Shown here: piece by piece, positions 46,356 to 63,516 of the stretch | How positions within the stretch are numbered: the first letter of the stretch is position 1 | Layout: each line of letters starts with the position of its first letter | Assembly (NCBI GenBank): GCA_028287785.1 | Contig: JAQBOZ010000017.1 | Span: 72,225 to 136,224 of the forward strand | DNA length: 64,000 nucleotides | Reading direction: 5' to 3' | Origin: Chlorobiota bacterium | GTDB lineage: Bacteria; Bacteroidota; Ignavibacteria; OLB7 | Notes under the pieces: model-generated | The model's input: the letters and a program-made list of their open reading frames with translations, nothing else | Databases searched by the model: none | What the model was told of the DNA's origin: nothing | Translations under genes and position numbers: made by a program

Positions 46356-48650
46356 ATGAATCTTCGCTTTCTGCTTCCACTCGTCCTTTTCCTGGGAGGG
46401 CTTTCCATTGCCCAGGGACAATTCCATCACATCCAGACGGACAAATCTCCGTCGTTTATTTTCAATGATCCGGTCAAGGGGCACATTCATGTGATCACCC
46501 TGGGGGTGGACGCCAACTTCGACGGCGTTTTCCAGCCCGGCTCCGACGTGGCTCCGCGCTGGTTTGTGCTGGATGCCGCTACCGAGGAGGAGGTGGGCTC
46601 CACCACATTCACGGGGTTCTTCAACTCCTTTCCGCTTCGCGCCGGCGTTGATCTGAAGGGACGCCGGCTCTACGTGCCGCAGCTCGGCCGCGTCCGCGCG
46701 TTCGATATCGACGATCTGGGGATCGTCCAGGATTCCGTCTCCACGACGAATGCCTCCACCGTCATGTTCGATTCCCTGACGGGATATATCACCCTCTCCT
46801 TCCGCCCCGGATTTACCGTTCCGGGATGGACCGAGACGATCGACCCGCGCACCGGGAAGCGTATCTCGATGATGAACACCGGCGTCAATCCCGGCATGGC
46901 CGTGCCGAAGGGGGCTGAAACGTATACCATCACCGAGGGGGGGCCGGGCATTCCCTCGACGGTCGCCTACAGCCGCTACCGGGCAAGCCTCTACGCCGGG
47001 GCGCTCGGCGGCAACGGGAATCATATGGTCGTGCGCGGAACCGCCGCCTATCTCGTGATGAGCGCCACCAACCAGATTCGGATCATCGACACCAGAACGG
47101 GGAGGGATACCCTCTCTTCGCCGATCGCTGTTGGCACGGCCGGATTCGGGAGCCCCCGCATGCTCGACGTTCAGGGGGACAGCGTGCTGGTGGTGGCGAC
47201 ATATGCCAGGGATATCCGACGATTCAGAATCGCGACCGGGGCGATGATCGACAAGATCGCGCTCCCCGGCGCCGCGGAGGCCGTTGCCGTGCGCGACTCG
47301 CTGGCATACGTGGCGATTCCGCTCGATTCCGCCCGCCATACCGATTCCCTGGTGGTGGTGGTGAACCTGAACAGCGGCCGGCCGGTCGATACGCTCGCCG
47401 TGGGGCCGAACCCGCTCGGGCTCTTTATCGATCGCCTCGGAAATCTTCAGGTGGTTGTGGCCGATACCATCCCCGGCGCCGGCCGGCTGGTGAGCTACGA
47501 GCGCGGAACGCTTCTCAAGAAGGGGGAGCGCCCGCTCCACGGCGCGATCAGCAACCCGCTGCATATGGCCTACGATAATTCCGACGACTCGCTCTTTATC
47601 GTCCTTTCCGATACTCTCTTCGCGTTCGCGGTTTCCGGCTCCGGCTCGCCGTTGCGCGCCGCCTATACCGATACGCTCGCCAGGGGGGCTCTCTTCGGCG
47701 TCAGCGGCGCGGGCGATTATCTCCTGATCACCGAACGCCCGAAGAACCCAGGGGAGGATTCATCCTATGTCCACATCGTGAGCCGGAAGAGCGGAGGGGA
47801 GGTGGCGAAATTCATGGCGGGTTACCTGGTGATGATGGCGCTGCCGGTGGTTTCCGGTCGCGGCGACCATGCGATGAGCTTCTACGCTCTCAACCAGGGA
47901 GGGTTTGCGGCGACTGCATCCACCCTGACCTCCTTCGAGTTCCAGCCCGATATCCTCGGCCCCGATACGCTGGGAAGCGGCGCGAACCATATAACGTTGG
48001 AGGGACTGAGCGCCGATAACGACAAGGCCCTGGTGACGATGAACGGGAACCACAGCGTTGTCCGGCTGGACCTCGATACCTGGACGGTGATGCGCCGCAC
48101 GTCGACGAAGACGACCGGGTTCGATGGCCCGCGCGAGACGATGGCGCTCTCCCCGTCGACGTTGCTCGTGAGCACCTACGCCGGCGATGTGCGCCGGATC
48201 ACGGTGAGCGATAACTCCGTCCGGGTGATCCCGGTCTATGGAAAGGCGGAGGGGATGGCGCGCGCCGGAAGCAAAGTCTACGTGGCCCTGCCGTTCGCTC
48301 CCGATGCCACCTACACGCCCTCCGCAAGCGTCGCGGTGATCGATACCGCCGCGATTGCATCGGTACGTCGTGATGATGCGATCGCATCCGCCACGACGCT
48401 GGAGCAGAACTATCCGAACCCCGTATCGTCCGGCACCGAGATCCGTTTCTCGGTCGCCGTGGCCGGCAGAGTGACCCTTGCCCTCTACAGGCCGGATGGC
48501 GCCCTTGCCGGCACGATCGTCGACAGGGAGATGGAGCCGGGAAGCTATACCGCGCGGATGGACGTGGCCGGGCTTGCCAGCGGATCATACATCTACACGC
48601 TTCGCTCCGGAGGAACGCTTCTGAGCAGAGTGATGAAGGTCGTGCGATAA
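46356..48650 (+). CDS. Secreted YVTN/YncE-like beta-propeller repeat protein with T9SS C-terminal sorting domain
   Basis: Signal peptide, repeated beta-propeller blades and a C-terminal T9SS CTD (NYPNPVSSGTEIRF...VTLALYRPDG...SGSYIYTL). First gene downstream of the B12 riboswitch. Confidence 0.6.
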   Translation: MNLRFLLPLVLFLGGLSIAQGQFHHIQTDKSPSFIFNDPVKGHIHVITLGVDANFDGVFQPGSDVAPRWFVLDAATEEEVGSTTFTGFFNSFPLRAGVDLKGRRLYVPQLGRVRAFDIDDLGIVQDSVSTTNASTVMFDSLTGYITLSFRPGFTVPGWTETIDPRTGKRISMMNTGVNPGMAVPKGAETYTITEGGPGIPSTVAYSRYRASLYAGALGGNGNHMVVRGTAAYLVMSATNQIRIIDTRTGRDTLSSPIAVGTAGFGSPRMLDVQGDSVLVVATYARDIRRFRIATGAMIDKIALPGAAEAVAVRDSLAYVAIPLDSARHTDSLVVVVNLNSGRPVDTLAVGPNPLGLFIDRLGNLQVVVADTIPGAGRLVSYERGTLLKKGERPLHGAISNPLHMAYDNSDDSLFIVLSDTLFAFAVSGSGSPLRAAYTDTLARGALFGVSGAGDYLLITERPKNPGEDSSYVHIVSRKSGGEVAKFMAGYLVMMALPVVSGRGDHAMSFYALNQGGFAATASTLTSFEFQPDILGPDTLGSGANHITLEGLSADNDKALVTMNGNHSVVRLDLDTWTVMRRTSTKTTGFDGPRETMALSPSTLLVSTYAGDVRRITVSDNSVRVIPVYGKAEGMARAGSKVYVALPFAPDATYTPSASVAVIDTAAIASVRRDDAIASATTLEQNYPNPVSSGTEIRFSVAVAGRVTLALYRPDGALAGTIVDREMEPGSYTARMDVAGLASGSYIYTLRSGGTLLSRVMKVVR

Positions 48651-49633
48651 TGCGATCATCATCATACCGCCGGCCGGGAGCCATCCCCGGCCGGTTGCGC
48701 CGGCTTGCCGCCGCCGCGCTGCTCTTCCTGGCAATCGCGTCGCCGGGCCACGCCCAGTGGGAGAACACCGGCGCCGATGCCGTGGAATCCTTCACCCCCG
48801 GAACCGGGGCGGGGCTTGGCTCCGATCACTATCCCGAGAATGTCCTCGGCCTTCCCGACTCGGCCGCCCGAGCCGATATCCCCACGATCGATCCCGTTCA
48901 GATCCTGTCGCTCGGGCTCGGCGGCGAAATCGTCCTCCGGTTCGATCGCGCGCCGATCACCGATATCCCCGGCCCCGACTTCACGGTGTTCGAAAACGCG
49001 TTCACCTATATCATCGGTGGAAAGGAGAAGACCTATGCCGAGCCGGGCGAGGTTGCGGTAAGCCGGGACGGCGTTCACTTTCTGACATTTCCGTACGACT
49101 CCATCACCCTCCGCGGGTGCGCCGGCGTTGGCCCCACCAACGGCGGGAACGATCCCGGCGATCCGCTTGTCTCCGGCGGCAACAGCTTCGATCTTCACGA
49201 TCTCGGGGTCGACTCGGTTCGATGGGTTCGCATCCGCGATGTGACCTCGATCGTCAAGGATCATCCCTCGCATCCCTTCTGGGACCCCACGCTGACCGGG
49301 TTCGATCTTGATGCCGTTGTGCGCGCCACGAAATCCCATCCGGGCGGCATCGCCACGGCTCCCACGGGCGCGCACGCTTCGGCGGTGCTTTCGCCCAACC
49401 CGGTTGCCGGACAGGGGGTGCTCCGGGTTGATGCTCCCATATCGGGAGACCTCACGGCGCGGGTGACCGATCTTCTCGGAAGAGAGGTGATGACAATCTC
49501 CGGCGGCGCTATCGACCGAGGCCGGAACGTGCTTCCGTTCGATGCCTCCCGGCTGGCCGATGGCGTCTACTTCATAGCCGTGGCGATCGATGGACATCCC
49601 GTGACGATGCTCAGGGCCCAGGTATGTAGATGA
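48650..49633 (+). CDS. Secreted hypothetical protein with T9SS C-terminal sorting domain
   Basis: Signal peptide and C-terminal CTD (LSPNPVAGQGVLRV...DGVYFIAVAIDGHPVTMLRAQV). No recognisable catalytic motif. Its start overlaps the upstream stop (TAATG) and its stop overlaps the TBDR start (ATGA). Confidence 0.5.
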   Translation: MRSSSYRRPGAIPGRLRRLAAAALLFLAIASPGHAQWENTGADAVESFTPGTGAGLGSDHYPENVLGLPDSAARADIPTIDPVQILSLGLGGEIVLRFDRAPITDIPGPDFTVFENAFTYIIGGKEKTYAEPGEVAVSRDGVHFLTFPYDSITLRGCAGVGPTNGGNDPGDPLVSGGNSFDLHDLGVDSVRWVRIRDVTSIVKDHPSHPFWDPTLTGFDLDAVVRATKSHPGGIATAPTGAHASAVLSPNPVAGQGVLRVDAPISGDLTARVTDLLGREVMTISGGAIDRGRNVLPFDASRLADGVYFIAVAIDGHPVTMLRAQVCR

Positions 49634-51618
49634 GAGCCCTTGCCCTCCATATCTCCCTGCTCGTGCTTTCCGGGGCATGCGCGGCGGCCCAGCCCGGAAC
49701 CCCGGAGCCGGGGAAGGGAAAGGATTCCGCGAGAGTCTACCACGCTCCTGAAGTGCGCGTGGAGGCACGGTCGATACTGACGCGGGTATCGCGGGGAACG
49801 CAGCCGCGCGCGGTTGTGACCAGGGCGCAGATCGAGGCGGCAAACGGCTTCGACCTTTCCGATGCCGTTGCGTACGCGCCGGGGGTGTTCGTGAAGCAGT
49901 ATGGCGGCGTCGGCGGGCTGCGGACGATATCGCTGCGCGGCACATCGGCGCAGCAGACGGTGATCCTGATCGATGGGATCCGGTACCGGAGCAGCGCGGA
50001 CGGGGGGTTCGATTTCAGCAATCTTCCCTCGGCATCGGTCGATCAGGTGGAGGTGCTCCGCGGCGGCAACGCGGCGCTCTACGGCGCCAATGCACTCGGC
50101 GGCGTGATCAACGTGGTGACGCGAGCGCCATCGGCCGGCGGGACGGCGCTTACGGCGCGAGGGGGATATGGCTCGTATGGTCAGCGGGAGATGGGCATCG
50201 GGGGGAACGGCGCGGCGGGAAACCATGTGTGGGATGCCGGTTTCAACGCCACCGCCACAAACGGCAACTATCCGTTCAGCTTCAATGAGTTCGGTGCCAC
50301 CTCGACCTTCGAGCGGGATAATGCGGACTTCTCCAACTATTTCGGCCGTGGAGGCTGGGCATATCATCGCGATGATGGCCTGCGGCTTTCGGCCTCGATG
50401 CAGGGCTATCGATCCGAACGTGGCGTCCCCGGCGCGGTGGTGCAGGGAAACCGCGAACAGCTCCATGCGCGCCTGAATGAGAGCGATCTGTTTGCCGCCG
50501 CCGCCGCTTCCTGGCCCACGGAGGAGTGGCAGTTCTCCATCTCGGCGAGCGGTCGCCTGAACGCCCTGGGCTACCGCGATCCCGACGCGCGCGTTGCCGG
50601 CCCGTCCGGCATCGACGACGAGTATCGGGAGAGGGAGGGGAACTTCATGGGGAGGGTGAGGCGGGCAATCGGTGACCATGGCGTTGCGGAGGGGACGGCG
50701 GAGGTTTCTCAGACGCATCTTCGCGGCGACAATCTGGACCCGGCGCTGGGCTCCGCCGCATCGCGGACTTCGGTGAGCGGCGCGATCGCAACAAACTGGC
50801 TTTATGACGATGGTCTGTTCGGCTGCGAAACCGCCCTCGAAGCCGGCCTTCGTCTCGATCTCTTCGATGATCTTCCCACCGCGCTGAGCCCATCGGCCGG
50901 GTTGATCTGGCGCGCCGGCTCCACCCCGCTCCGGCTGCGGGCGCATGGTGGGCTGAACTACAGGGCGCCGAGCTTCGCCGAGCAATACTATCTCAACTAC
51001 GGCAACGCGAACCTGCGGCCCGAGCGTTCCATGAGCGGCGACCTTGGGGCTACCTACGAGGTGGGGGAGACGTTCGCCCTGGAATCGAGCTTCTTCATGA
51101 TCGCCACGCGCGATCAGATCGTCTCGGTGCCGCGCAGCCCCGTAAGCTGGAGCGCGGCAAACGTCGAGCGGGTTCTTTCGCGCGGCCTGGAGCTGGGGGG
51201 ATCGGGGACGCTGTTCGATGGGATGCTTGGGCTTCGGGCCTCCTACACGCTGACACGGGCCGAGGACAGGAGCGGGGGAACGGTGGATGGAAAGCTGCTG
51301 GTGTATGCGCCCGAGGAGTTGACCAACGGCATCGTGGATCTGCGGCTGGGTCGTTACGGCATCGGAGCGGCGTGGCAGTACGTCGGTCATCGCTTCACGC
51401 TCCCCGCGAACGATCCCGGTTCCGCGCTGCCACGTTACGGCCTGCTTGCCGCAAATATCTCCGCGCGCTGGATCATTGGCGGCGTGGGGGTGAAGGCGCG
51501 CCTGGAATGCTCGAACATGTTCGATACGGAATATCAGGTGGTGAGGAATTATCCCATGCCGGGGAGAACGTTTCTCGGAAGGGTCGAGATCGATTTTCAT
51601 GATGGGCCGCAACCATGA
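49630..51618 (+). CDS. TonB-dependent receptor, BtuB-like size class
   Basis: Plug domain (DQVEVLRGGNAALYGANALGGVINVVTR) and a 22-strand barrel-like C-terminal region with terminal ...RVEIDF. In a riboswitch-led operon. Confidence 0.8.
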   Translation: MRALALHISLLVLSGACAAAQPGTPEPGKGKDSARVYHAPEVRVEARSILTRVSRGTQPRAVVTRAQIEAANGFDLSDAVAYAPGVFVKQYGGVGGLRTISLRGTSAQQTVILIDGIRYRSSADGGFDFSNLPSASVDQVEVLRGGNAALYGANALGGVINVVTRAPSAGGTALTARGGYGSYGQREMGIGGNGAAGNHVWDAGFNATATNGNYPFSFNEFGATSTFERDNADFSNYFGRGGWAYHRDDGLRLSASMQGYRSERGVPGAVVQGNREQLHARLNESDLFAAAAASWPTEEWQFSISASGRLNALGYRDPDARVAGPSGIDDEYREREGNFMGRVRRAIGDHGVAEGTAEVSQTHLRGDNLDPALGSAASRTSVSGAIATNWLYDDGLFGCETALEAGLRLDLFDDLPTALSPSAGLIWRAGSTPLRLRAHGGLNYRAPSFAEQYYLNYGNANLRPERSMSGDLGATYEVGETFALESSFFMIATRDQIVSVPRSPVSWSAANVERVLSRGLELGGSGTLFDGMLGLRASYTLTRAEDRSGGTVDGKLLVYAPEELTNGIVDLRLGRYGIGAAWQYVGHRFTLPANDPGSALPRYGLLAANISARWIIGGVGVKARLECSNMFDTEYQVVRNYPMPGRTFLGRVEIDFHDGPQP

Positions 51619-52745
51619 GCGCGATTGCGCGGGATATCCATATGCCGATAAGAAAATGCGTAGCCACGCGGCTTTGCGGGGCGATCGTGCCATCCGCTCT
51701 GCTTGCGTTGGTGCTTCTGCTGGCCGGCTGCATATCCGATCCCACACTCACATCTCCTCCGGTGGTGAGCGCCGGAGCGCATGGGGTGCTGGTGGTGAAC
51801 GAGGGGGTATGGAAGCAGGATAATTCCACGCTCACCTTCTACAACCCCGATAGCGGCGGGCCGGTTCAGGACTATTTCGCGGCGCGCAATCCCGGCCTGC
51901 GTCTGGGGGATCTCGGCAACAGCATCGTTACCTGGAAGGGACGGGGATATATCGCCGTCTCCACGTCGCGGGCGGTGGAGGTGATCGATCTGGCGACCGG
52001 GCATTCCCTGGGGCGCGTCCGTCTGAACGCCCCGAACGAGCCGCGCATGATCGCGATCATCGACAGCGCGACCGCGTTTGTCACAACCTTTGCCGATTCG
52101 GTGATCCGTTTCAACCCGATGACGCTGGCAACGACGGGATCGTTCGCCGTGGGGCCGGCCCCGGAGGGGATCGCGTATGCCGCCGGCCATCTTTTTGTGG
52201 CGAACTCCGGGCTCGGCAATCTGCGGCGCACCGAACCAGGGGCGGGGACGATCTCGGTGCTCGATCCGGCAAGCGGCGCGGAGCTGGCGATGCTTCCCAC
52301 CGGCACCAACCCGCTGAGCGTTCATTATCTGCCATCGCGGGGGCGCGTCTACGTGCTGGCCCGTCCCATTCTCCCCGATACGCTCGGCGCCGTGGTGGAA
52401 TACGATCCGGCCTCGTTGCGCGAGGTTCGTCGCTGGCCGGTGGCCGGTGGCTACGACATGGCTGTCGATGACGGGCGCGGGATCATCTATGTGATGCATG
52501 GGGAGGGCGTGGCGCGGATCGATCCATCGGTTGCGGGGGATAATGTGAGGGGGCTGGTGCAACTGGGCGAGGCGGGGGCGATGTTCTATTCGATCGGGGT
52601 GGAGCCGGTAAGCGGCGATATCTATCTGGGGACCACGAACGGGTACTCAAGCGTGCCGGCGGCGGTGATGATATACGACCGCGCTGGCGCGTTCAAATCC
52701 CGTTTTCCCTGCGGCATCTATCCCGGCGATTTCGCGTTCTATTGA
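51615..52745 (+). CDS. YncE-like beta-propeller surface lipoprotein (BtuG-like candidate)
   Basis: Lipobox LLLAGC in the signal peptide, beta-propeller repeats, immediately downstream of and overlapping the TonB-dependent receptor. Confidence 0.55.
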   Translation: MSAIARDIHMPIRKCVATRLCGAIVPSALLALVLLLAGCISDPTLTSPPVVSAGAHGVLVVNEGVWKQDNSTLTFYNPDSGGPVQDYFAARNPGLRLGDLGNSIVTWKGRGYIAVSTSRAVEVIDLATGHSLGRVRLNAPNEPRMIAIIDSATAFVTTFADSVIRFNPMTLATTGSFAVGPAPEGIAYAAGHLFVANSGLGNLRRTEPGAGTISVLDPASGAELAMLPTGTNPLSVHYLPSRGRVYVLARPILPDTLGAVVEYDPASLREVRRWPVAGGYDMAVDDGRGIIYVMHGEGVARIDPSVAGDNVRGLVQLGEAGAMFYSIGVEPVSGDIYLGTTNGYSSVPAAVMIYDRAGAFKSRFPCGIYPGDFAFY

Positions 52746-56206: not shown

Positions 56207-56220
56207 TGTCTGTACGTTGG

Positions 56221-56249
56221 TCGGGGCGGGTTTCAAACCCGCCCCGACG
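56221..56249. terminator. Bidirectional terminator hairpin between rsgA and the histidine kinase gene
   Basis: tcggggcgggttt c aaacccgccccga: a near-perfect 13-bp stem. Confidence 0.7.
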
Positions 56250-56272: not shown

Positions 56273-57949
56273 CTATCGTCCTCCGCGCGAACGCTTCAGC
56301 AACCGCGGCAGCTCAAACGCCGCTGCCCGTCCTTTCTGCTTCTGCGCGCCGGGATCGTCCGGCGGGGTCACCGGCTCCTCGATCAGCAGCGGCAGGCGCA
56401 CGATAAAGGTGCTTCCCTGTCCCGGTTCGCTTTCCACCGCGATGGTGCCGCCATGAATCTGCACGATCCACTGTACAATCGACAATCCCAGCCCCGCGCC
56501 TCCAAGCTCCCGGCTCCGCGCCTTGTCCACCCGATAAAATCTGTCGAATATCTTCTTCCGATGCTCCGGGTTGATGCCGATGCCGGTATCCCGCACCCGT
56601 ATCTCCGCGAACTCCCCATCCGGGTGGACCGCGATGGAGATCATCCCTCCCTCCGGCGTGTACTTGATGGCGTTGTCCACCAGGTTCAGGAACATCTGAT
56701 AGAGCTTGGCCCGGTCGGCCTCGATAAAGAGAGCCTGGCTGTGCCTGAAGGAGATGTAGATGTTCTTCTGCGTCCCGAGGATCGTGGCGGCGTCCGCGAC
56801 CTCCTCCAGCGTCTCGGTCAGGTCGGTCGGCTCCTTGATCAGGGATATCTGCCCCATGTCCGTGCGGGAGAGGAGGAGGAGCGATTCCACCACATGGGAG
56901 AGCCGCAGCACCTCCTGAAGGGCGCTGGAGAGGACATCCTGATAATCCTCCGGCGATTTTCTGGTCCGCAACGCCAGCTCCAGCTCGCCGGTCAGGATCG
57001 TCAGTGGCGTCCGCAGCTCATGCGATGCATCGGCGGTGAACTGGCGTATCCGTTCAAACGAGCTTTCCAGGCGGGAGATCATGTCATTGAGCGTCTCGGA
57101 AAGTCGGCCTATCTCATCGTTGCTCTTCGGGATGGGGAGGCGGCGGGAGAGATTGGATGCCGTGATATCCTGCGCCGTGCGGGTGATCTCATCGACGGGA
57201 TGGAGCGTGGTCTTGGCGAGAAACCATCCCCCCACCATCGAGAGGAGGAGCACCGCCGGGGCAAGAAGGATAAGCGTGGAGAAGAACTGATCGAGCAGCG
57301 ACTGAACCTCATCCACCTGATAGCCGGCCACGATATACGCGGATCGGGAGCGCGCCAGGGCAATTCTCAGCCGTTGCGTCCCATCCTTCCCGCGGATCGG
57401 CTGATCCACCGAGATAAACTGCACCGTGGAATCCTGCGCCGTGGTGATAAAGCTCCCAGGCAGATGGAGCGAGTCCTTCCCGAGATTATCCGAACGGTAG
57501 ACGATGGTGCCGTTGGTATCCATCACCTGGATCATGAAGTTCCGGGGGTTCAGGATGATATGCTCGTAGATCGCCGTCCAGACCGCATCGACCTTCTGAT
57601 CCTGCTTCTGCGCGGCAAGCTCGGTCTTGAGCGGCTTGATGGCGGTCTTGATCGTGGAGTCGGCGGCGAGGGAGTCCTTGCTCAGGAAGGCGAGATCGTT
57701 GCTCTTCGAGCCCTTCTTATGCGGCACCGGCGGTGGCGGAGCAGGCTTTTCTCCGGCCTCCTTTGTCTGCTCGGCGCGTTTGCGGATGATCACGTCGAGC
57801 GAGGAGATGACATTTTTCAGCGAGACATCCAGGTTGGATGTCAGCTCATTGGAAACCGACCCGTAGGTGAGCACGCTGAAGACCGCGAGGGAGATCGCCA
57901 TCACCAGGCAGAACCAGAGCGTAAGGCGGGCACGGAGGGATAGATTCAC
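56273..57949 (-). CDS. Two-component sensor histidine kinase (CusS/heavy-metal-sensor-like architecture)
   Basis: TM1, a ~190-aa periplasmic domain, TM2, HAMP, HisKA (ADASHELRTPLT) and HATPase_c. GTG start at 57949 overlaps the response-regulator stop (GTGA). The ORF-track extension to 58555 runs through the response-regulator gene and is rejected. Confidence 0.8.
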   Translation of the reverse strand: MNLSLRARLTLWFCLVMAISLAVFSVLTYGSVSNELTSNLDVSLKNVISSLDVIIRKRAEQTKEAGEKPAPPPPVPHKKGSKSNDLAFLSKDSLAADSTIKTAIKPLKTELAAQKQDQKVDAVWTAIYEHIILNPRNFMIQVMDTNGTIVYRSDNLGKDSLHLPGSFITTAQDSTVQFISVDQPIRGKDGTQRLRIALARSRSAYIVAGYQVDEVQSLLDQFFSTLILLAPAVLLLSMVGGWFLAKTTLHPVDEITRTAQDITASNLSRRLPIPKSNDEIGRLSETLNDMISRLESSFERIRQFTADASHELRTPLTILTGELELALRTRKSPEDYQDVLSSALQEVLRLSHVVESLLLLSRTDMGQISLIKEPTDLTETLEEVADAATILGTQKNIYISFRHSQALFIEADRAKLYQMFLNLVDNAIKYTPEGGMISIAVHPDGEFAEIRVRDTGIGINPEHRKKIFDRFYRVDKARSRELGGAGLGLSIVQWIVQIHGGTIAVESEPGQGSTFIVRLPLLIEEPVTPPDDPGAQKQKGRAAAFELPRLLKRSRGGR

Positions 57950-58638
57950 TCTTTTTCCTCCTCGGGAACTCCTTCGCGCATCACATAGCCGACGCCGCGA
58001 ATCGAGTGGATCAGCCGCGAACCGCCATCCACCTCGACCTTGTTCCTGAGGCGATTGATATACACATCCACCAGATTGGAATCCACCGCGAAGTTGTAGT
58101 TCCAGACATGCTGCGTGATCACCGAGCGGCTGAGCACGCGATCGGCATTCCGCATCAGATATTCCAGCAGCGCGTACTCCCGCGTGGTCAGCTCGATCTC
58201 CGTGTTGACGCGCTTTGCCTTCCGGGTGATCGAATCGAGATAGAGATCCCCCACCTTCAACTGATTCGATTTTTCGACGGAGCGGCGGCGGAGCATCGAG
58301 CGGATTCTGGCGGTCAGCTCCTCGAAATGGAACGGCTTCGCCAGATAGTCGTCGGCGCCGGAATCCAGCCCGGTGATCTTGTCCTGAATCGTCCCCTTGG
58401 CCGTTAGGATCAGCACCGGCGTGGTCATGCCGCGGGCGCGGAACTCCCGCAACAGCGAGATGCCGTCGCGCTTCGGCATCATCAGGTCCAGCACGATGCC
58501 GTCGAATTCTCCCGTGAGCGCCTTCTCCAGCCCCTGCTCGCCATCGTAGGCGCAATCCACATCGTAATGTTCCTCACGCAGACCCTGCATGATGAAGTTC
58601 GCCACCTTCTTTTCATCCTCGATTACAAGAAGCTTCAT
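57946..58638 (-). CDS. OmpR-family response regulator (CusR-like)
   Basis: Receiver domain MKLLVIEDEKK...VLDLMMP...LILTAKG and a winged-helix C-terminus (GVGYVMRE). Start at 58638. Confidence 0.85.
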   Translation of the reverse strand: MKLLVIEDEKKVANFIMQGLREEHYDVDCAYDGEQGLEKALTGEFDGIVLDLMMPKRDGISLLREFRARGMTTPVLILTAKGTIQDKITGLDSGADDYLAKPFHFEELTARIRSMLRRRSVEKSNQLKVGDLYLDSITRKAKRVNTEIELTTREYALLEYLMRNADRVLSRSVITQHVWNYNFAVDSNLVDVYINRLRNKVEVDGGSRLIHSIRGVGYVMREGVPEEEKE

Positions 58639-58756
58639 AACACCAAAATCCTGTGTACTCGAACAAATGCTCTCCGCCATCGGACCATGCTGAATGCCGG
58701 ACACAGGGGAGAGAAGTGGAAAAATACAGAATGGGACGACGCAAATGGCCGGAATT

Positions 58757-58855
58757 CATTTGAAATGAATGCGGGCATCTGAATGCGCGTGTTTGAAACG
58801 AATGCATGCATCTGAACACGCGCATGTGCAGATGTCGGAGTTCGTTTCAAACGAA
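58757..58855. promoter_or_regulatory. Operator-like repeat cluster upstream of the response-regulator gene: two ~35-bp direct repeats plus a perfect palindrome TTCGTTTCAAACGAA
   Basis: Seen directly. Repeat 1 is catttgaaatgaatgcgggcatctgaatgcgcgtg. Repeat 2 is gtttgaaacgaatgcatgcatctgaacacgcgcatg. The palindrome is at 58841-58855, in the divergent intergenic region between the response regulator and the 58998 gene. Confidence 0.4.
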
Positions 58856-58997
58856 GCCCTCCCCCGGACACGATCAACGGGAGATACCGCATGGCACGCT
58901 ATTCGTGACGGACTGAGCAACTACTTCTGCCGGTATAATGCCCCGGTAGTCCGGAATCGGGTGCCGGCGATTCATCAGTTGTGAAGGAATCGACCTT

Positions 58998-59564
58998 ATG
59001 GGACGTTGTTCAGGGATCACACATCGCGGAGGATGGCTGGCGGCGCTGCTGCTGCTGCTCTGCGGAAGCGTTCTGACCGCGCAGGTGCGGACGCTGAATC
59101 TTCGCGAGATGGTCGGCTCGGCCGGGACCATCTTCATCGGCTCCGTCGCCGGGGTTTCCTCGGGATCGGATGAACATGGCGATATCGTCACCTACACCAC
59201 ATTCCGGGTGGAACAGCCCATCTACGGCGGCGCCGCCGGAACCGTCACCGTCAAACAGCTTGGCGGGGCCTCCGGCGGGCTCTCCACAAGGCTCGAACAT
59301 ATGCGCTACTTCCGCACCGGCGAGCGTGTGCTGGTGGCCTTCTATCCCATCAGCTCCCTTGGCTTCACCAGCCCCATCGGGCTTTATCAGGCCGTCTGGA
59401 ACGTCACGTCGGACGGGCAGGTGCTGGGGGTGGGGGATACATCGCTTGGGGGACTGGACGCGCTGCTCAGGCGATATCACCTGGACCGCAACGGCGGCAC
59501 GGTGGCGGCTTCCACGTTCGTTTCGATGATCGATGATCTTCTCAGGGAGGCGGGAAAATTATGA
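58998..59564 (+). CDS. Secreted hypothetical protein (signal peptide, Gly-rich)
   Basis: 188-aa ORF with an N-terminal signal peptide. Its stop overlaps the start of the giant downstream gene (ATGA). Confidence 0.45.
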   Translation: MGRCSGITHRGGWLAALLLLLCGSVLTAQVRTLNLREMVGSAGTIFIGSVAGVSSGSDEHGDIVTYTTFRVEQPIYGGAAGTVTVKQLGGASGGLSTRLEHMRYFRTGERVLVAFYPISSLGFTSPIGLYQAVWNVTSDGQVLGVGDTSLGGLDALLRRYHLDRNGGTVAASTFVSMIDDLLREAGKL

Positions 59565-62500
59565 GAACGATCACAATGATTCTTGCCGCGGCGATTATCG
59601 CCCTGACGGCGCTTCCGACGCATGCGGGGGGGCCGCTGACCGCCAACGGGACCACGGCGCGGAGATATCCCGCCGGCTCCATTCCCATCTCCTTCAAGAC
59701 CGATCAGGGGGCGCTCGGCTCCTTCTCCAACGGCACGGCAACCGGGATCGCGGTCTACGCGTTCCAGCAGTGGGATAACGTGGTCACTGCCGCTCTCTCC
59801 TTCAACAACGCGGGGCAGCTCCCGCGTGATGTCACCACCGCCGCCGATGCGTTTATCTCCGGCGCCGGACAGTTCAGCGATGGCGTCAACCCGGTGGTGT
59901 TCGACAACGACGGCTCCATCACCGACGCCAAGCTGGGGGTGGGGGCCAGGAACTCCGTGCTCGGCTTCGCCAGCTCCGCCTACGCCGGGAACAACTATGT
60001 GGAGGGATACGCCATCATCAACGGCTTCCTGAGCGGCGCCGGGGGCGTTGCGGAACAGGATGAGTACAAGGCGACGATCACCCATGAGATCGGGCATTTT
60101 CTCGGGCTGGGACACTCGCAGGTTTCCATGCACGCCGATTACGCCACGATGTATCCAGTCATCGAGAAGACCGCGCAGAAAACCCTTTCACCCGACGATC
60201 AGGCTGCCATCTCCATTCTCTATCCGGCCGCGGGGTATACCGCCACGGTCGGCGGCATCACCGGAACGGTGCGGCGGCTTCCCAACACCTCCCTGAGCGG
60301 CGTGAATGTGATCGCCGAGGACTCCGCGACGGGCGCGGCCTACAGCACCGTGGTCGATTACTTCTCCGGCGGGAAATCGGGGTTTGACAACGCTCCTGCG
60401 GCAACCGGCACCTACACATTCACGGGGCTGCCGCCGGGGAGATACTTCGTCAGGATCGAGCCGGTCACGGCAACCTTTACCGGCGGTTCGTCGGTCGCCA
60501 GCTACGATACGCCGGCCAACATGAATATCGATCGCGAATGGTACAACGGCACGGCGGAGAACGGGGATATGCTCCTCGACAACGTCAACGAGAAGACGGG
60601 CGTGGTGGTGGCCGCCGGCGCCACGACATCCAACATCAGCTTCCTCGAAAACGAGTCCATCACGATCAGCTCCCTGGTCTATCACGACGGCACTCCCTAT
60701 TATCTCTTCGATCTGCCGCAGGCGGGGATCAGCCGCTATGCCGTGCGGTTTACGGCTCCCGGCACCGGATCGCTGGTGGGGGTGAAGTTCAAGCTGGGCG
60801 CCGGCTCGGTGCTGCCGCTCAACGGCACGCTTACCGTCACGGTCCACGCCAACGCGCCGGGGAGCGTGGCGGGGGTGCCGGGGACGGCGCTCGGATCGGT
60901 GACGATCCCGTACAGCGATATCGCCGCCGATCAGAACGTGGAGGTCTACCTGCGCGGCATAGGGTTGCCGATAAACTTCCCGGCCGGAACCAACTTCCAC
61001 GTCTCGCTCTCCACGAACGGCGTCGGCACGCTTGAGCTTTTTACCGATAACGGGAGCACGACGCAGAACCGGACATCGTACTACAACGGCACCGTCTGGC
61101 GGAATTTCCCGGAGGGGGGCTATCAGGCGGGATATAATCTCGTGATGTCCGCGGTCTACTCCTCCTCCATCGCCGGCACGCCGCAGCCCGCTCTCTCGGC
61201 CACGCCCACGTCGCTCCAGTTCGGACGGGTCAGGCCGGGGAACAGCATCACCAGGACAGTTACCGTGACCAACACCGGCACCGGCCTGCTGACGGTGAAC
61301 ACGACGCCGATCCTCGGGCGTGACAGCCTCGATTATTCGGTCACGGCGGGGAAGGGGCCGTTCACGGTGGACCCGGGATTGTCGCACGATATCAGCGTGC
61401 GGTTCACCCCGCGGGACGCGGGGGGAGTGGAGGACGGGACGAAGTCGGCGATGATGGCGATCGTCAGCAACGCGGCGACATCCCCCGATAATGTCCCGCT
61501 CAGCGGTCGCGCGGTCGCGCCGCTCGTCATGAAGGTGACATCGGCCGTGGACTTCGGTTCGCGACGGGTTGGGGGCACCTATATCATCGATACGGTCCTG
61601 TTCAGGAACGCCGGCAACGATACGCTTCACGTCACCGGCGTAACCGCCCTCGGCCCGGATGACGGCAGCGGCCTCCGGCTGCTGAACGGCAGTGGTGCCA
61701 CCATTGTCCCACCGGATTCCAGCTTCCGTGCCCGCATCCAGTTTACGCCGACGGAACGGCGCATATATACGCTCAACCTCCGCATCGTCCACGACGACCC
61801 GAAGAACACCCCGACCGATATCACGATCGCCGGCCGCGGCGTGGCGGCCATCATCTCCACGGCGGGGACCTTCTCGGTGGGCAGGGCCCGCGTGGGAACC
61901 ACCATCGACGCGCCGCCGCTCTTTGTGCGGAACAGCGGGGATATTCCGGTGAGGATCACATCGCTCACGATAAGCGGCGCCAACGCGACGGAGTTCATTG
62001 TTCTTTCACCGGTGCCGCCGGTGACGCTGGCTCCCGGCGATTCTCTTCCGATCCGCTTCCGGTTCCATCCGATGGCAATCGGAATTCGCGTGGCGACGCT
62101 CCAGGTGGGGGCGGATTCGCTGGCGCCGATCAGTATCCAGCTCAATGGCGAGGGGATACAGGGGGCGCTCTCCTTCCGTTCGGCGGCCGTCGATTTCGGC
62201 GATGTTCCTCTGGCATCCAACGGCGAGCGTGATATCGCCGTGGTGAACTCCGGCACCGATACGGCAACCATCAGCTCGGCCGATGTCACGGGGTCCGGGT
62301 TCTCGCTCGTGACGCAGTCGCTCGCGGGACGGAAGCTCCTTCCGGGGGATAGCGTCATCGTCCGTGTCCGATTTGCGCCGACGGTTGCGGGCACTTCATC
62401 GGGGAGCCTCCGCATCGCCAGCAACGGCTCCGATCCGCTGATCGTCGCTTCGCTCTCCGGCCGGGGAACGGCGGCGGGGCTTACGCTCAACCGCACCCGC

Positions 62501-63415
62501 GTCGATTTCGGAGCGGTGGCCACCGGCATATCGCGCACCGATTCGTTTACCGTGCGGAACACCGGCAACGCTCCTCTGACCGGCGTGACGTTGACGTTGA
62601 CTGGGCCTGACGCCGCGGCGTTCGAGATCATCTCGCCGACCCCCCTTGCCGTTTCCCCCGGAGGGGCGCAGACCGTCCTGGTTCGGCTGAAGCCGCAGGC
62701 ATCGGAGCGCGCGCTGTCGGCGGGCGTTGTGGTGCAGCCCGCCGGTGGATCATCGGCCGAGGTAACGCTGTCGGCAACGATTGGTAGCGGCATTGCCGCC
62801 ACGGTTGCCGCCGTCGATTTCGGAAGTAGGCTCCCCGGCGGGGCTTACGATACCACGGTGGTCATCAGGAACATCACATCCGGCAGCATCACCATCTCCT
62901 CCATCGCCGCCAGTGCCGGCAAGGATGGCGCTTCCGGCGATTATTTCCGCTCGATGAGCCCCGCGCCGGTGATGATCCCGCCGAACGATTCGATCGCGAT
63001 TGTCGTGCGGTTTTCGCCGGCCGCCGGAACGGGTCGGTACACCGGATCGCTGGCGATCGCCGTCAACGGCTCCGCGCCGCTGGTGATCTCACTCGTCGGC
63101 CGGGCTTCGGCAGTCGGCGGCGTGGCCGATGGGATCGTGGCCGGGGAGGGGATGCCTGCACTACTGCCGGTTGCGCCGAACCCCGCGGCCGGGGTCATAG
63201 AGATCGGGTATCGCGCCGGTGGAGGGATGATGCCGGTGGAGATCGTCATTACCGATGCAATCGGCAGGGAGGTTGCGGTTGTCTATCAGGGAACCGCAAC
63301 GCGCACTGACGAGCGCGTTCGATTCAACACCTCACCGCTGCCGTCCGGGAGATATTACGTGCTTCTCCGATCGGCGCGCGGCAGCGTTACGCAACCGCTG
63401 GTGATCGTGAAATAG
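59561..63415 (+). CDS. T9SS-secreted matrixin-like (M10 metzincin) metalloprotease with multiple Ig-like ASH / choice-of-anchor-D type repeats
   Basis: Signal peptide. Catalytic domain with HEIGHFLGLGHS (HExxHxxGxxH), a Met-turn ATMYP, and matrixin-like AFQQWDNV and DDQAAISILYP. At least seven ~100-aa repeats begin with V/LDFG...V.N.G...L.I. C-terminal T9SS CTD. Confidence 0.75.
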   Translation: MRTITMILAAAIIALTALPTHAGGPLTANGTTARRYPAGSIPISFKTDQGALGSFSNGTATGIAVYAFQQWDNVVTAALSFNNAGQLPRDVTTAADAFISGAGQFSDGVNPVVFDNDGSITDAKLGVGARNSVLGFASSAYAGNNYVEGYAIINGFLSGAGGVAEQDEYKATITHEIGHFLGLGHSQVSMHADYATMYPVIEKTAQKTLSPDDQAAISILYPAAGYTATVGGITGTVRRLPNTSLSGVNVIAEDSATGAAYSTVVDYFSGGKSGFDNAPAATGTYTFTGLPPGRYFVRIEPVTATFTGGSSVASYDTPANMNIDREWYNGTAENGDMLLDNVNEKTGVVVAAGATTSNISFLENESITISSLVYHDGTPYYLFDLPQAGISRYAVRFTAPGTGSLVGVKFKLGAGSVLPLNGTLTVTVHANAPGSVAGVPGTALGSVTIPYSDIAADQNVEVYLRGIGLPINFPAGTNFHVSLSTNGVGTLELFTDNGSTTQNRTSYYNGTVWRNFPEGGYQAGYNLVMSAVYSSSIAGTPQPALSATPTSLQFGRVRPGNSITRTVTVTNTGTGLLTVNTTPILGRDSLDYSVTAGKGPFTVDPGLSHDISVRFTPRDAGGVEDGTKSAMMAIVSNAATSPDNVPLSGRAVAPLVMKVTSAVDFGSRRVGGTYIIDTVLFRNAGNDTLHVTGVTALGPDDGSGLRLLNGSGATIVPPDSSFRARIQFTPTERRIYTLNLRIVHDDPKNTPTDITIAGRGVAAIISTAGTFSVGRARVGTTIDAPPLFVRNSGDIPVRITSLTISGANATEFIVLSPVPPVTLAPGDSLPIRFRFHPMAIGIRVATLQVGADSLAPISIQLNGEGIQGALSFRSAAVDFGDVPLASNGERDIAVVNSGTDTATISSADVTGSGFSLVTQSLAGRKLLPGDSVIVRVRFAPTVAGTSSGSLRIASNGSDPLIVASLSGRGTAAGLTLNRTRVDFGAVATGISRTDSFTVRNTGNAPLTGVTLTLTGPDAAAFEIISPTPLAVSPGGAQTVLVRLKPQASERALSAGVVVQPAGGSSAEVTLSATIGSGIAATVAAVDFGSRLPGGAYDTTVVIRNITSGSITISSIAASAGKDGASGDYFRSMSPAPVMIPPNDSIAIVVRFSPAAGTGRYTGSLAIAVNGSAPLVISLVGRASAVGGVADGIVAGEGMPALLPVAPNPAAGVIEIGYRAGGGMMPVEIVITDAIGREVAVVYQGTATRTDERVRFNTSPLPSGRYYVLLRSARGSVTQPLVIVK

Positions 63416-63482
63416 GGATGGGCGCGCTCATCGGCGGTCATGGTCGCCAATGACATGCTCCACGCAGGGATCAGGCTACGGG

Positions 63483-63516
63483 CCGGGGGGATCATCTCCT
63501 CCCGGCTTTTTTATTT
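63483..63516 (+). terminator. Rho-independent terminator after the metalloprotease gene
   Basis: ccgggggga (loop tcatc) tcctcccgg followed by cttttttattt. Confidence 0.75.

Follow-up and report, generated by a model that had tools for sequence, protein, structure and literature searches.

The association of a protease with a co-transcribed cognate inhibitor is a known kind of system, and the locus considered here is probably a variant of it. It lies in a stretch of 64,000 nucleotides (the whole stretch being referred to as the window) from a Chlorobi/Kapabacteria-like metagenome-assembled genome of an uncultured soil lineage, and it consists of four genes, for a sensor histidine kinase and a response regulator that are divergent from an operon encoding a small secreted protein of 188 residues and a matrixin-like protease of 1284 residues (Table 1). 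Judged by analogy, the closest functional counterparts are PotA, with its target karilysin, and the other potempins of Tannerella forsythia. Potempins are encoded by small open reading frames (ORFs) directly upstream of, and co-transcribed with, the KLIKK peptidases of the type 9 secretion system (T9SS), and they are specific for their partners; PotA, which inhibits the matrix metalloproteinase (MMP)-like M10 enzyme karilysin, is a single-domain β-barrel of the OB fold with a functional loop between strands 4 and 5 (PMC9890683). The small ORF described here is likewise immediately upstream of the gene for a T9SS peptidase, and its product has a loop in the same strand 4-5 position, but potempins are outer-membrane surface lipoproteins of 98-132 residues, whereas the present partner has 160 residues in its mature form, a type I signal peptide, no lipobox, and extra helices like those of netrin-like (NTR) modules and tissue inhibitors of metalloproteinases (TIMPs). 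Potempin structures have been solved (PMC9890683), and comparison of the family profile of the small protein with the Protein Data Bank (PDB) indicated no sequence relation to them. The small-protein family also differs from the potempins in being distributed over many phyla and in not being tied to the T9SS, and inhibition is in its case inferred.

Among bacterial metzincins, only that of Listeria monocytogenes, the secreted Mtz, has been reported with a TIMP-like partner, Tim, a lipoprotein with a predicted TIMP-like fold; the authors of that study found no earlier record of a bacterial TIMP-like protein (PMC8235301). As in the present module, a metzincin is paired with a protein of TIMP-like fold and a dedicated regulator is adjacent, but the gene order is mtz followed by tim, Tim is a lipoprotein that is cleaved by Mtz, control is exerted by a CI/Cro switch of phage type, and the system occurs in a Gram-positive host and is of prophage origin. 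Animal TIMPs and NTR domains (MEROPS I35; PF00965 and PF01759) resemble the small protein in having an OB barrel with flanking helices, which is predicted in the case of the small protein, and an MMP-fold protein as actual or presumptive target. The sequence and model of the small protein further place its mature N terminus ~15 residues before the first barrel strand, which we take to be the layout of N-TIMP also. Unlike the small protein, animal TIMPs have Cys1, three disulfides in the N-TIMP domain, and a C-terminal TIMP domain, and there is no detectable sequence similarity between the two. The serralysin inhibitors APRin and Inh of Pseudomonas, Erwinia, and Serratia are small periplasmic β-barrel proteins that also occur beside a secreted metzincin and are thought to shield the periplasm (see also PMC8235301), but their barrel is eight-stranded, their targets are M10B serralysins exported by type I secretion, and comparison of the profile with the PDB found no sequence relation. 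Bacterial MMP-like enzymes have been discussed as evolutionary links to animal MMPs in a 2025 article (PMC12587646), the text of which does not mention TIMPs, the word “inhibitor” appearing only in its reference list.

Inspection of the sequence confirmed the gene arrangement given in the original prediction, an earlier note on this DNA made from the letters alone. The regulator stop and the kinase start overlap in a GTGA at 57946-57949, as expected for the translational coupling that had been claimed, and the 188-residue ORF ends in ...TTATGA, with the ATG of the 1284-residue ORF inside it (an ATGA overlap), the two genes forming one translationally coupled operon. The strong terminator placed after this operon is also present, as a GC-rich stem of 12 bp (63480-63508) followed by TTTTTTATTT, with a folding energy of -22.3 kcal/mol (z = -3.0). 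There is nothing unusual in a two-component system beside a secreted protease; what is notable in the locus is the small gene.

The main result concerns this small gene and its pairing with the catalytic domain of the protease. Genome loci were found with the small protein as query and were counted at the species level, and a catalytic-domain homologue follows the small gene on the same strand in 50 of the 51 loci; the single exception (L055) is cut by the end of its contig, and L051 has the reversed order, with the protease homologue upstream. The paired loci span Kapabacteria, Ignavibacteria, Bacteroidota, Myxococcota, Binatia, and Acidobacteriota, and the two genes overlap by 4 nt in Kapabacteria and are separated by 1-13 nt elsewhere. 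In the reverse test, which started from the catalytic domain in metagenomes and counted only loci with enough upstream sequence (n = 57), a homologue of the small family was found directly upstream in 47. The search of representative proteins described below also returned a protein of 807 residues, P0251, in which a small domain (residues 11-182) is fused to an MMP-like protease containing HEFGHYANLDH and a CarboxypepD_reg-like domain, the linker being non-hydrophobic at the position where a protease signal peptide would be expected; this could be either a natural fusion or a frameshift artefact. The C termini of the proteases, in contrast to the pairing itself, change with phylum (L023-L061), being a T9SS domain in Bacteroidota, Ignavibacteria, and Kapabacteria and a Cys-containing tail, '...DRCT...DQLRLRC(L)K', in Myxococcota and Binatia. 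Because the pairing persists while the C-terminal domains change, the small protein appears to work with the catalytic domain and not with the T9SS domain or the Ig-like repeats, and there is a strong case that it is the dedicated partner of that domain. The pair is an ancient cross-phylum cassette that is independent of both the two-component system and the T9SS, a point missed by the original prediction. That prediction had offered the roles of inhibitor, chaperone, or partner for the small protein; the pairing strongly supports the last of these, and the TIMP/NTR-like predicted fold adds a structural basis to the association.

At a few loci the protease terminates with 'GGCSLIR(K)', a sequence similar to a C-terminal signal of the sortase type.

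The protease consists of a signal peptide (residues 1-22, the first mature residue being Gly), an MMP-like catalytic domain at residues ~40-225 (Pfam Peptidase_M10, PF00413, 36.4 bits against a cutoff of 24), a CarboxypepD_reg-like domain at residues 233-300, six choice-of-anchor-D Ig-like domains at residues ~540-1190 (six stretches matching NCBIfam choice_anch_D; Pfam HYDIN/ASH), and a T9SS type A C-terminal domain at residues 1204-1284 (TIGR04183, 28.3 against 23; PF18962, Por_Secre_tail, 29.9 against 27), the last of which implies export of the protein to the cell surface or into the medium. When aligned to MMP-12, HEIGHFLGLGHS together with ATMYP represents the HExxHxxGxxHS site and Met-turn by which matrixins are recognized, and residues H175, E176, H179, G182, H185, Y198, and P199 are invariant in 49 protease homologues. 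A homologue search with the catalytic domain alone returned only 3 proteins, so that the full-length query had to be used. In the AlphaFold2 (AF2) model of residues 1-340, the mean predicted local distance difference test score (pLDDT) is 86.5, and the top 50 Foldseek matches in the PDB are all MMP catalytic domains, karilysin included, with E values from 8e-5 and TM-scores, normalized to the catalytic-domain targets, of 0.54-0.67. Domain models and fold thus agree with the earlier description of the divergent unit as a secreted small protein with a matrixin-like T9SS protease. A prodomain with a cysteine switch (PRCGxPD) is not present: the catalytic fold begins only ~18 residues beyond the signal peptide, its first core strand starting at residue 43, and the intervening stretch contains no Cys. 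As judged from these models, the protease is a prodomain-less zinc endopeptidase with an MMP (matrixin) fold, and because it has this fold but neither prodomain nor cysteine switch, it would be expected to need an external latency factor.

The small protein had no match in Pfam or NCBIfam, nor did 55 members of its family when scanned singly against Pfam at E values up to 5. Its 60 close homologues are all ~180-200 residues in length, and when 1.84 billion representative proteins were searched with the family profile, 4724 clusters (at 50% identity) matched with E<=1e-3, including 685 at 1e-10; nearly all of the 150 clusters listed have lengths of 130-260 residues. The signal peptide comprises residues 1-28, with predicted cleavage at ...LTA|QVR, and is followed in the predicted layout by a TIMP/NTR-like OB-fold core from residue 29 to ~140 and two C-terminal helices. 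The AF2 model (pLDDT 90.6; predicted TM-score, pTM, 0.80) is a β-barrel with a short helix before it and two helices after it, and its top Foldseek matches in the PDB are TIMP-2, the NtA domain of agrin, TIMP-1 (in MMP complexes), and the NTR modules of PCOLCE and meteorin, with generic OB folds ranking below these TIMP/NTR matches. Among 136 diverse members of the family, conservation peaks in the loop between strands 4 and 5, at S119, G122, S125, P126, G128, Q131, and G132 (85-99%), and at D58; the near-invariant loop sequence is S119-x-x-G-F-T-S-P-x-G-x-x-Q-G132. Conservation also extends to a short N-terminal segment (V30 and L35) that begins directly at the cleavage site of the signal peptide. 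The small protein thus belongs to a large family that lacks annotation and for which a TIMP/NTR-like fold is predicted.

A reading of the small protein as a lipoprotein, acylated at Cys22, was considered and rejected: Cys22 is not conserved among 55 homologues, and the signal peptide is of type I with a conserved ...A|Q-V-R. The predicted first mature residue, Gln29 (59082 in the window), is invariant in 55 close homologues but not in other phyla. A “Q-rule” of pyroglutamate N termini has been described for Bacteroidetes, but not for the whole Fibrobacteres-Chlorobi-Bacteroidetes group (PMC5837995), and Gln29 may reflect either this rule or a function.

The arrangement that best accounts for these features is one in which the small protein is a cognate inhibitor that serves as a prodomain supplied in trans and the operon is under the control of the two-component system. 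Coupled translation would produce the inhibitor stoichiometrically alongside the enzyme, and the small protein would be exported by the Sec pathway and remain in the periplasm, which is to be expected because its signal peptide is of type I and it lacks a T9SS domain. There it would bind the prodomain-less MMP-like catalytic domain as a tight-binding inhibitor, with the TIMP/NTR-like OB barrel blocking the active-site cleft during periplasmic transit of the protease and perhaps aiding its folding. The binding surface would probably be formed by the strand 4-5 loop (S119-G132) and the conserved N-terminal segment. The protease would then leave through the T9SS, and the two-component system would set transcription of the operon from the shared 359-bp spacer in response to a periplasmic signal. 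We regard this proposal, taken as a whole, as evenly poised between right and wrong, and for its central component, a role of the small protein in inhibition or latency, the balance tips slightly in favor.

Several observations weigh against an inhibitory role modeled on TIMPs. The structural scores are modest: the best Foldseek match of the small-protein model has an E value of 5.6e-3, none reaches 1e-3, and the TM-scores are 0.3-0.6 (maximum 0.59). The family profile had no match among PDB chains at E values up to 10, and no sequence similarity of the small protein to TIMP or NTR domains was found. The mature small protein (Q29-L188) is free of cysteine, so that the mechanism of TIMPs, in which Cys1 chelates the zinc, is not applicable as such. 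In addition, ~18% of related protease loci are without the small partner. It should also be recognized that the comparisons rely on metagenome-assembled sequences.

If the small protein is an inhibitor, it would explain the latency of prodomain-less bacterial MMP-like enzymes, it would be a new scaffold for the specific inhibition of MMPs, as PotA was for MMP-12, and the origin of MMP-TIMP pairing would become testable. A far-reaching version of this view, that the family consists of ancestral operon-encoded TIMP-fold inhibitors of MMP-like metzincins across many phyla, with latency conferred by a separately encoded prodomain, and that it is the prokaryotic counterpart, and possibly the origin, of the MMP-TIMP pairing, is speculative and probably goes too far.

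The regulatory part of the proposal is based on conserved synteny. The regulator is adjacent to and divergent from the small gene in 11 of 12 species-level loci of Kapabacteria and on several further contigs, and the regulator orthologues are 78-100% identical. The adjacency could nevertheless be inherited gene order without direct regulation, with the repeats in the spacer being a functionless, strain-specific tandem duplication, and this is the most serious of the rival explanations although we consider it appreciably less probable than a regulatory link. The window's subclade has the module in a conserved chromosomal neighborhood, and for this reason part of the synteny may simply be inherited. 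In a clade comprising L002, L007, and L020-22, however, the module is kept amid other flanks on both sides, even though the small protein is only 47-48% and the kinase 54-56% identical. Other T9SS proteases are, moreover, appended to or embedded in the same two-component operon in other genomes, which also argues against mere inheritance. In two members of this clade (L002:63-7850 and L007:151-7746), the kinase gene is followed, co-directionally and with small gaps or overlaps, by genes for an FG-GAP/ASPIC protein with a T9SS tail and an S8 peptidase of ~1000 residues, a layout which suggests that the two-component operon itself carries secreted-protease cargo. At L012:1133-6772 (JBMDXA010000242.1, Kapaibacteriota), two co-directional genes are nested between those of the regulator and kinase and encode a secreted protein of 350 residues without a Pfam match and a metzincin of 401 residues (HEFGHMLGFAH) with a T9SS sorting domain; they constitute a second pair of this kind, within the two-component operon.

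In the closest relative (L011:137-811 and 1019-1753; JBDSJW010000288.1), the kinase gene is missing and an integrase/tyrosine-recombinase-like ORF is present on the opposite strand directly past the regulator stop, which could be the result of a mobile-element insertion or of an assembly join.

The divergent spacer (58639-58997, 359 bp) had been predicted to carry direct repeats and a palindrome typical of OmpR-family operators. The repeats and palindromes are real and non-random. A 31-nt direct repeat, with copies at 58759-58789 and 58792-58822, is identical at 26 of 31 positions and has a period of 33 nt, and the perfect palindromes ATTCATTTGAAATGAAT (58754-58770) and TTCGTTTCAAACGAA (58841-58855) are located at the two ends of the cluster. 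None of 1000 dinucleotide-preserving shuffles of the spacer reached 26/31 (the maximum being 21), and two palindromes with arms of at least 7 occurred in 0.1% of 1000 shuffles; the palindrome pattern has no other occurrence within the 64-kb window. Their description as typical operators was not upheld. In L011, the nearest relative, the regulator is 100% and the small protein 89% identical and the flanks of the spacer are conserved, but the repeat block is 86 bp shorter and contains a single palindrome-like unit. The spacers of distant loci, with regulators that are 78-91% identical, are without the repeats, the palindrome pattern being limited to the nearest relative.

Searches for an element shared by the spacers gave a similar picture. 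Enumeration of words (7-9-mers with one mismatch) across 11 spacers produced nothing that exceeds shuffled controls. Gibbs sampling yielded one motif over the shuffles, TTGAAAATAcaGAATG, with 14.4 bits as compared with <=13.0 in 10 shuffled sets; in 8 of the 11 loci it precedes the start of the regulator gene by 33-97 nt, and it is always on the regulator side, this regulator-proximal GAAAATACAGAATG box being all that the sampling recovered. The corresponding site in the window, 58718-58735, reads ...TGTATTTTTC on the strand of the regulator, a sequence similar to TAnnTTTG, the -7 promoter element known from the Bacteroidetes group, and is probably either the -7-like promoter box from which the regulator and kinase genes are transcribed or a site of autoregulation. 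On the other side of the repeats, the TATAAT hexamer is a possible -10 element of the 188-residue gene, to judge from its sequence; a sigma-70 scan found no full promoter. The spacer of the window contains five copies of GAATG on its + strand, and the motif is enriched in closer relatives but absent from the group of L002, L007, L017, L018, and L022; because of this absence, and because the motif was chosen after inspection of the data, it is to be taken as a lead only.

The repeat cluster is therefore a candidate regulator-binding array situated between two putative divergent promoters; its operator role (58757-58855) is unproven because copy number differs between loci with an identical regulator and because there is no conservation further away. 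Its position, and a degree of repetition far beyond chance, count against a functionless duplication. The longer repeat block of the window as compared with that of L011, where the regulator is identical, the failure to find an operator motif common to the spacers despite regulators that are 78-100% identical, and the resemblance of the sole conserved motif to the regulator operon's own promoter are all in keeping with inherited order. So are the loci in which the pair is kept without an adjacent two-component system, which belong to two lineages of Kapabacteria (L005/L013 and L009), and the distribution outside Kapabacteria, where no phylum was found with a two-component system beside the pair; together these points count against control of the operon by the two-component system. 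On the evidence of conserved synteny, we nonetheless favor, by a small margin, such control of 58998-63415, and it would provide a handle on the regulation of secreted proteases in an uncultured soil lineage.

The alternative that comes next in standing concerns the function of the small protein, which might act in the periplasm as a chaperone for folding or secretion, or else activate the protease as a cofactor, binding it transiently, helping it to fold or keeping it competent for the T9SS, and then being released. Many protease prodomains, such as those of subtilisin and α-lytic protease, both fold and inhibit their enzymes, and the obligate pairing, the tight coupling, and a natural fusion would suit a foldase equally well. 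NTR modules can also enhance the activity of metzincins, an example being the procollagen C-proteinase enhancer, PCPE (PMC2871463). The partner, however, tracks the catalytic domain across differing export and anchoring domains and is thus not specific to the T9SS, its closest structural matches are dominated by the inhibitory domains of TIMPs, and the OB-fold partners that occupy the same gene position in Tannerella are inhibitors (PMC9890683). A chaperone or cofactor is, on this balance, unlikely, and inhibition is the preferred function of the small protein.

As regards the two-component system, the kinase has a first transmembrane segment, a periplasmic domain of ~185 residues, a second transmembrane segment, and HAMP, HisKA, and HATPase_c domains, the last three assigned by Pfam. 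The two proteins constitute, by their sequences, an OmpR-type system of the CusS/CopS family, and the name “CusRS-like” used in the original prediction is appropriate in this respect: the kinase scores 308.1 bits with TIGR01386 (heavy-metal sensor kinase, CusS/CopS/SilS), above the cutoff of 292.55 by a small margin, and the best match of the regulator is TIGR01387 (CusR/CopR), with 253.5 bits, below the cutoff of 279.2. The domain architecture, the best family-model matches, and the translationally coupled gene pair are all as in CusRS/CopRS systems. It might then be supposed that the system is an ordinary one for copper, silver, or heavy metals and that the protease operon is unrelated to it or merely metal-induced; the position of the kinase above its cutoff, the best match of the regulator, and the match of the Pfam CusS sensor model to the kinase would fit such a role. 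This match, however, is limited to residues 3-64, the regulator is under its cutoff, and in the alignment of 12 orthologues none of the His, Met, or Cys residues of the kinase periplasmic domain is invariant. The sensor domain gave no informative sequence match to solved structures, including that of the CusS sensor domain, and it contains a variable low-complexity insert, rich in Lys, Pro, and Glu (…EKPAPPPPVPHKKGSKSND…; residues ~55-115, 57700-57860 in the window), which differs in length and sequence among orthologues, is flanked by conserved segments, and is probably disordered.

The neighboring genes also differ from those of CusRS/CopRS systems. No metal-resistance genes (efflux, P-type ATPase, or multicopper oxidase) were found among scanned neighbors here or in related loci, the conserved neighbors being secreted proteases, and the only matches among the upstream ORFs scanned were to a TonB-receptor plug, DUF5074, a ferredoxin-type protein, SRP54, an oxidoreductase, and a TMEM260-like transferase. 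Because of the marginal kinase score, the lack of invariant ligands, and the lack of metal genes nearby, “CusRS-like” holds for the family but is unsupported for the signal, and the earlier suggestion of metal sensing finds no backing in the conserved residues of the sensor, the regulator score, or the neighborhood. A periplasmic signal consisting of copper or silver bound by CusS-type ligands is unlikely, and the explanation of the system as an ordinary metal sensor is accordingly improbable. As a speculative extension of the far-reaching view of the family given above, the kinase, with its variable insert in the sensor domain, might monitor periplasmic protease activity rather than metal.

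The weakest of the alternatives makes the small protein a substrate or effector, processed and released by the protease, the pair acting on the envelope or on other cells, as proposed for Tim of Listeria, where the metzincin cleaves its TIMP-like lipoprotein partner and frees an active fragment (PMC8235301), but the present partner has no conserved lipobox and no hint of a conserved cleavage site, is encoded upstream and not downstream of the protease, and had no match in a phage collection, in which phage-borne Tim homologues might have been sampled, and we give this explanation very little credence.

Table 1. Positions of the module genes and associated sequence elements in the window
Feature	Position	Strand	Description
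GC-rich hairpin, GTCGGGGCGGG-TTTCAAA-CCCGCCCCGAC	56220-56248		Perfect 11 bp; between convergent rsgA and kinase genes
Sensor histidine kinase	56273-57949	-	558 aa; GTG start
OmpR/PhoB-type response regulator	57946-58638	-	230 aa; Pfam Response_reg and Trans_reg_C
GGAAAAATACAGAATGGG, sole motif conserved across divergent spacers of related loci	58718-58735	-	Gibbs sampling; alignment with L011
Repeat cluster	58754-58855		Two palindromes and 31-nt direct repeats
TATAAT hexamer	58934-58939	+	59 nt upstream of the 188-aa gene; L011 reads TAGAAT
Small secreted partner protein	58998-59564	+	188 aa
Matrixin-like protease	59561-63415	+	1284 aa
Zinc motif HEIGHFLGLGH	60083-60115	+	aa 175-185; followed by Ser186; Met-turn ATMYP at aa 195-199
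Intrinsic terminator of small-protein/protease operon	63480-63516	+	Terminator scan; folding energy

The neighbors of the module are genes for an epimerase, RsgA, and a TPR protein. The rsgA gene, which is convergent with that of the kinase, was identified by Pfam RsgA_GTPase, and the hairpin between the two is likely to be a bidirectional terminator; it is absent from the output of the terminator scan, and there is no T run in its flanks. Matches to families of anti-phage defense did not go beyond generic kinase and receiver similarities. Further upstream, at 46356-52745 in the window, are four co-directional overlapping genes that encode proteins of 764 and 327 residues without a Pfam match, a TonB-dependent receptor (Plug), and a DUF5074-like protein, and these may represent an uncharacterized outer-membrane uptake cluster.

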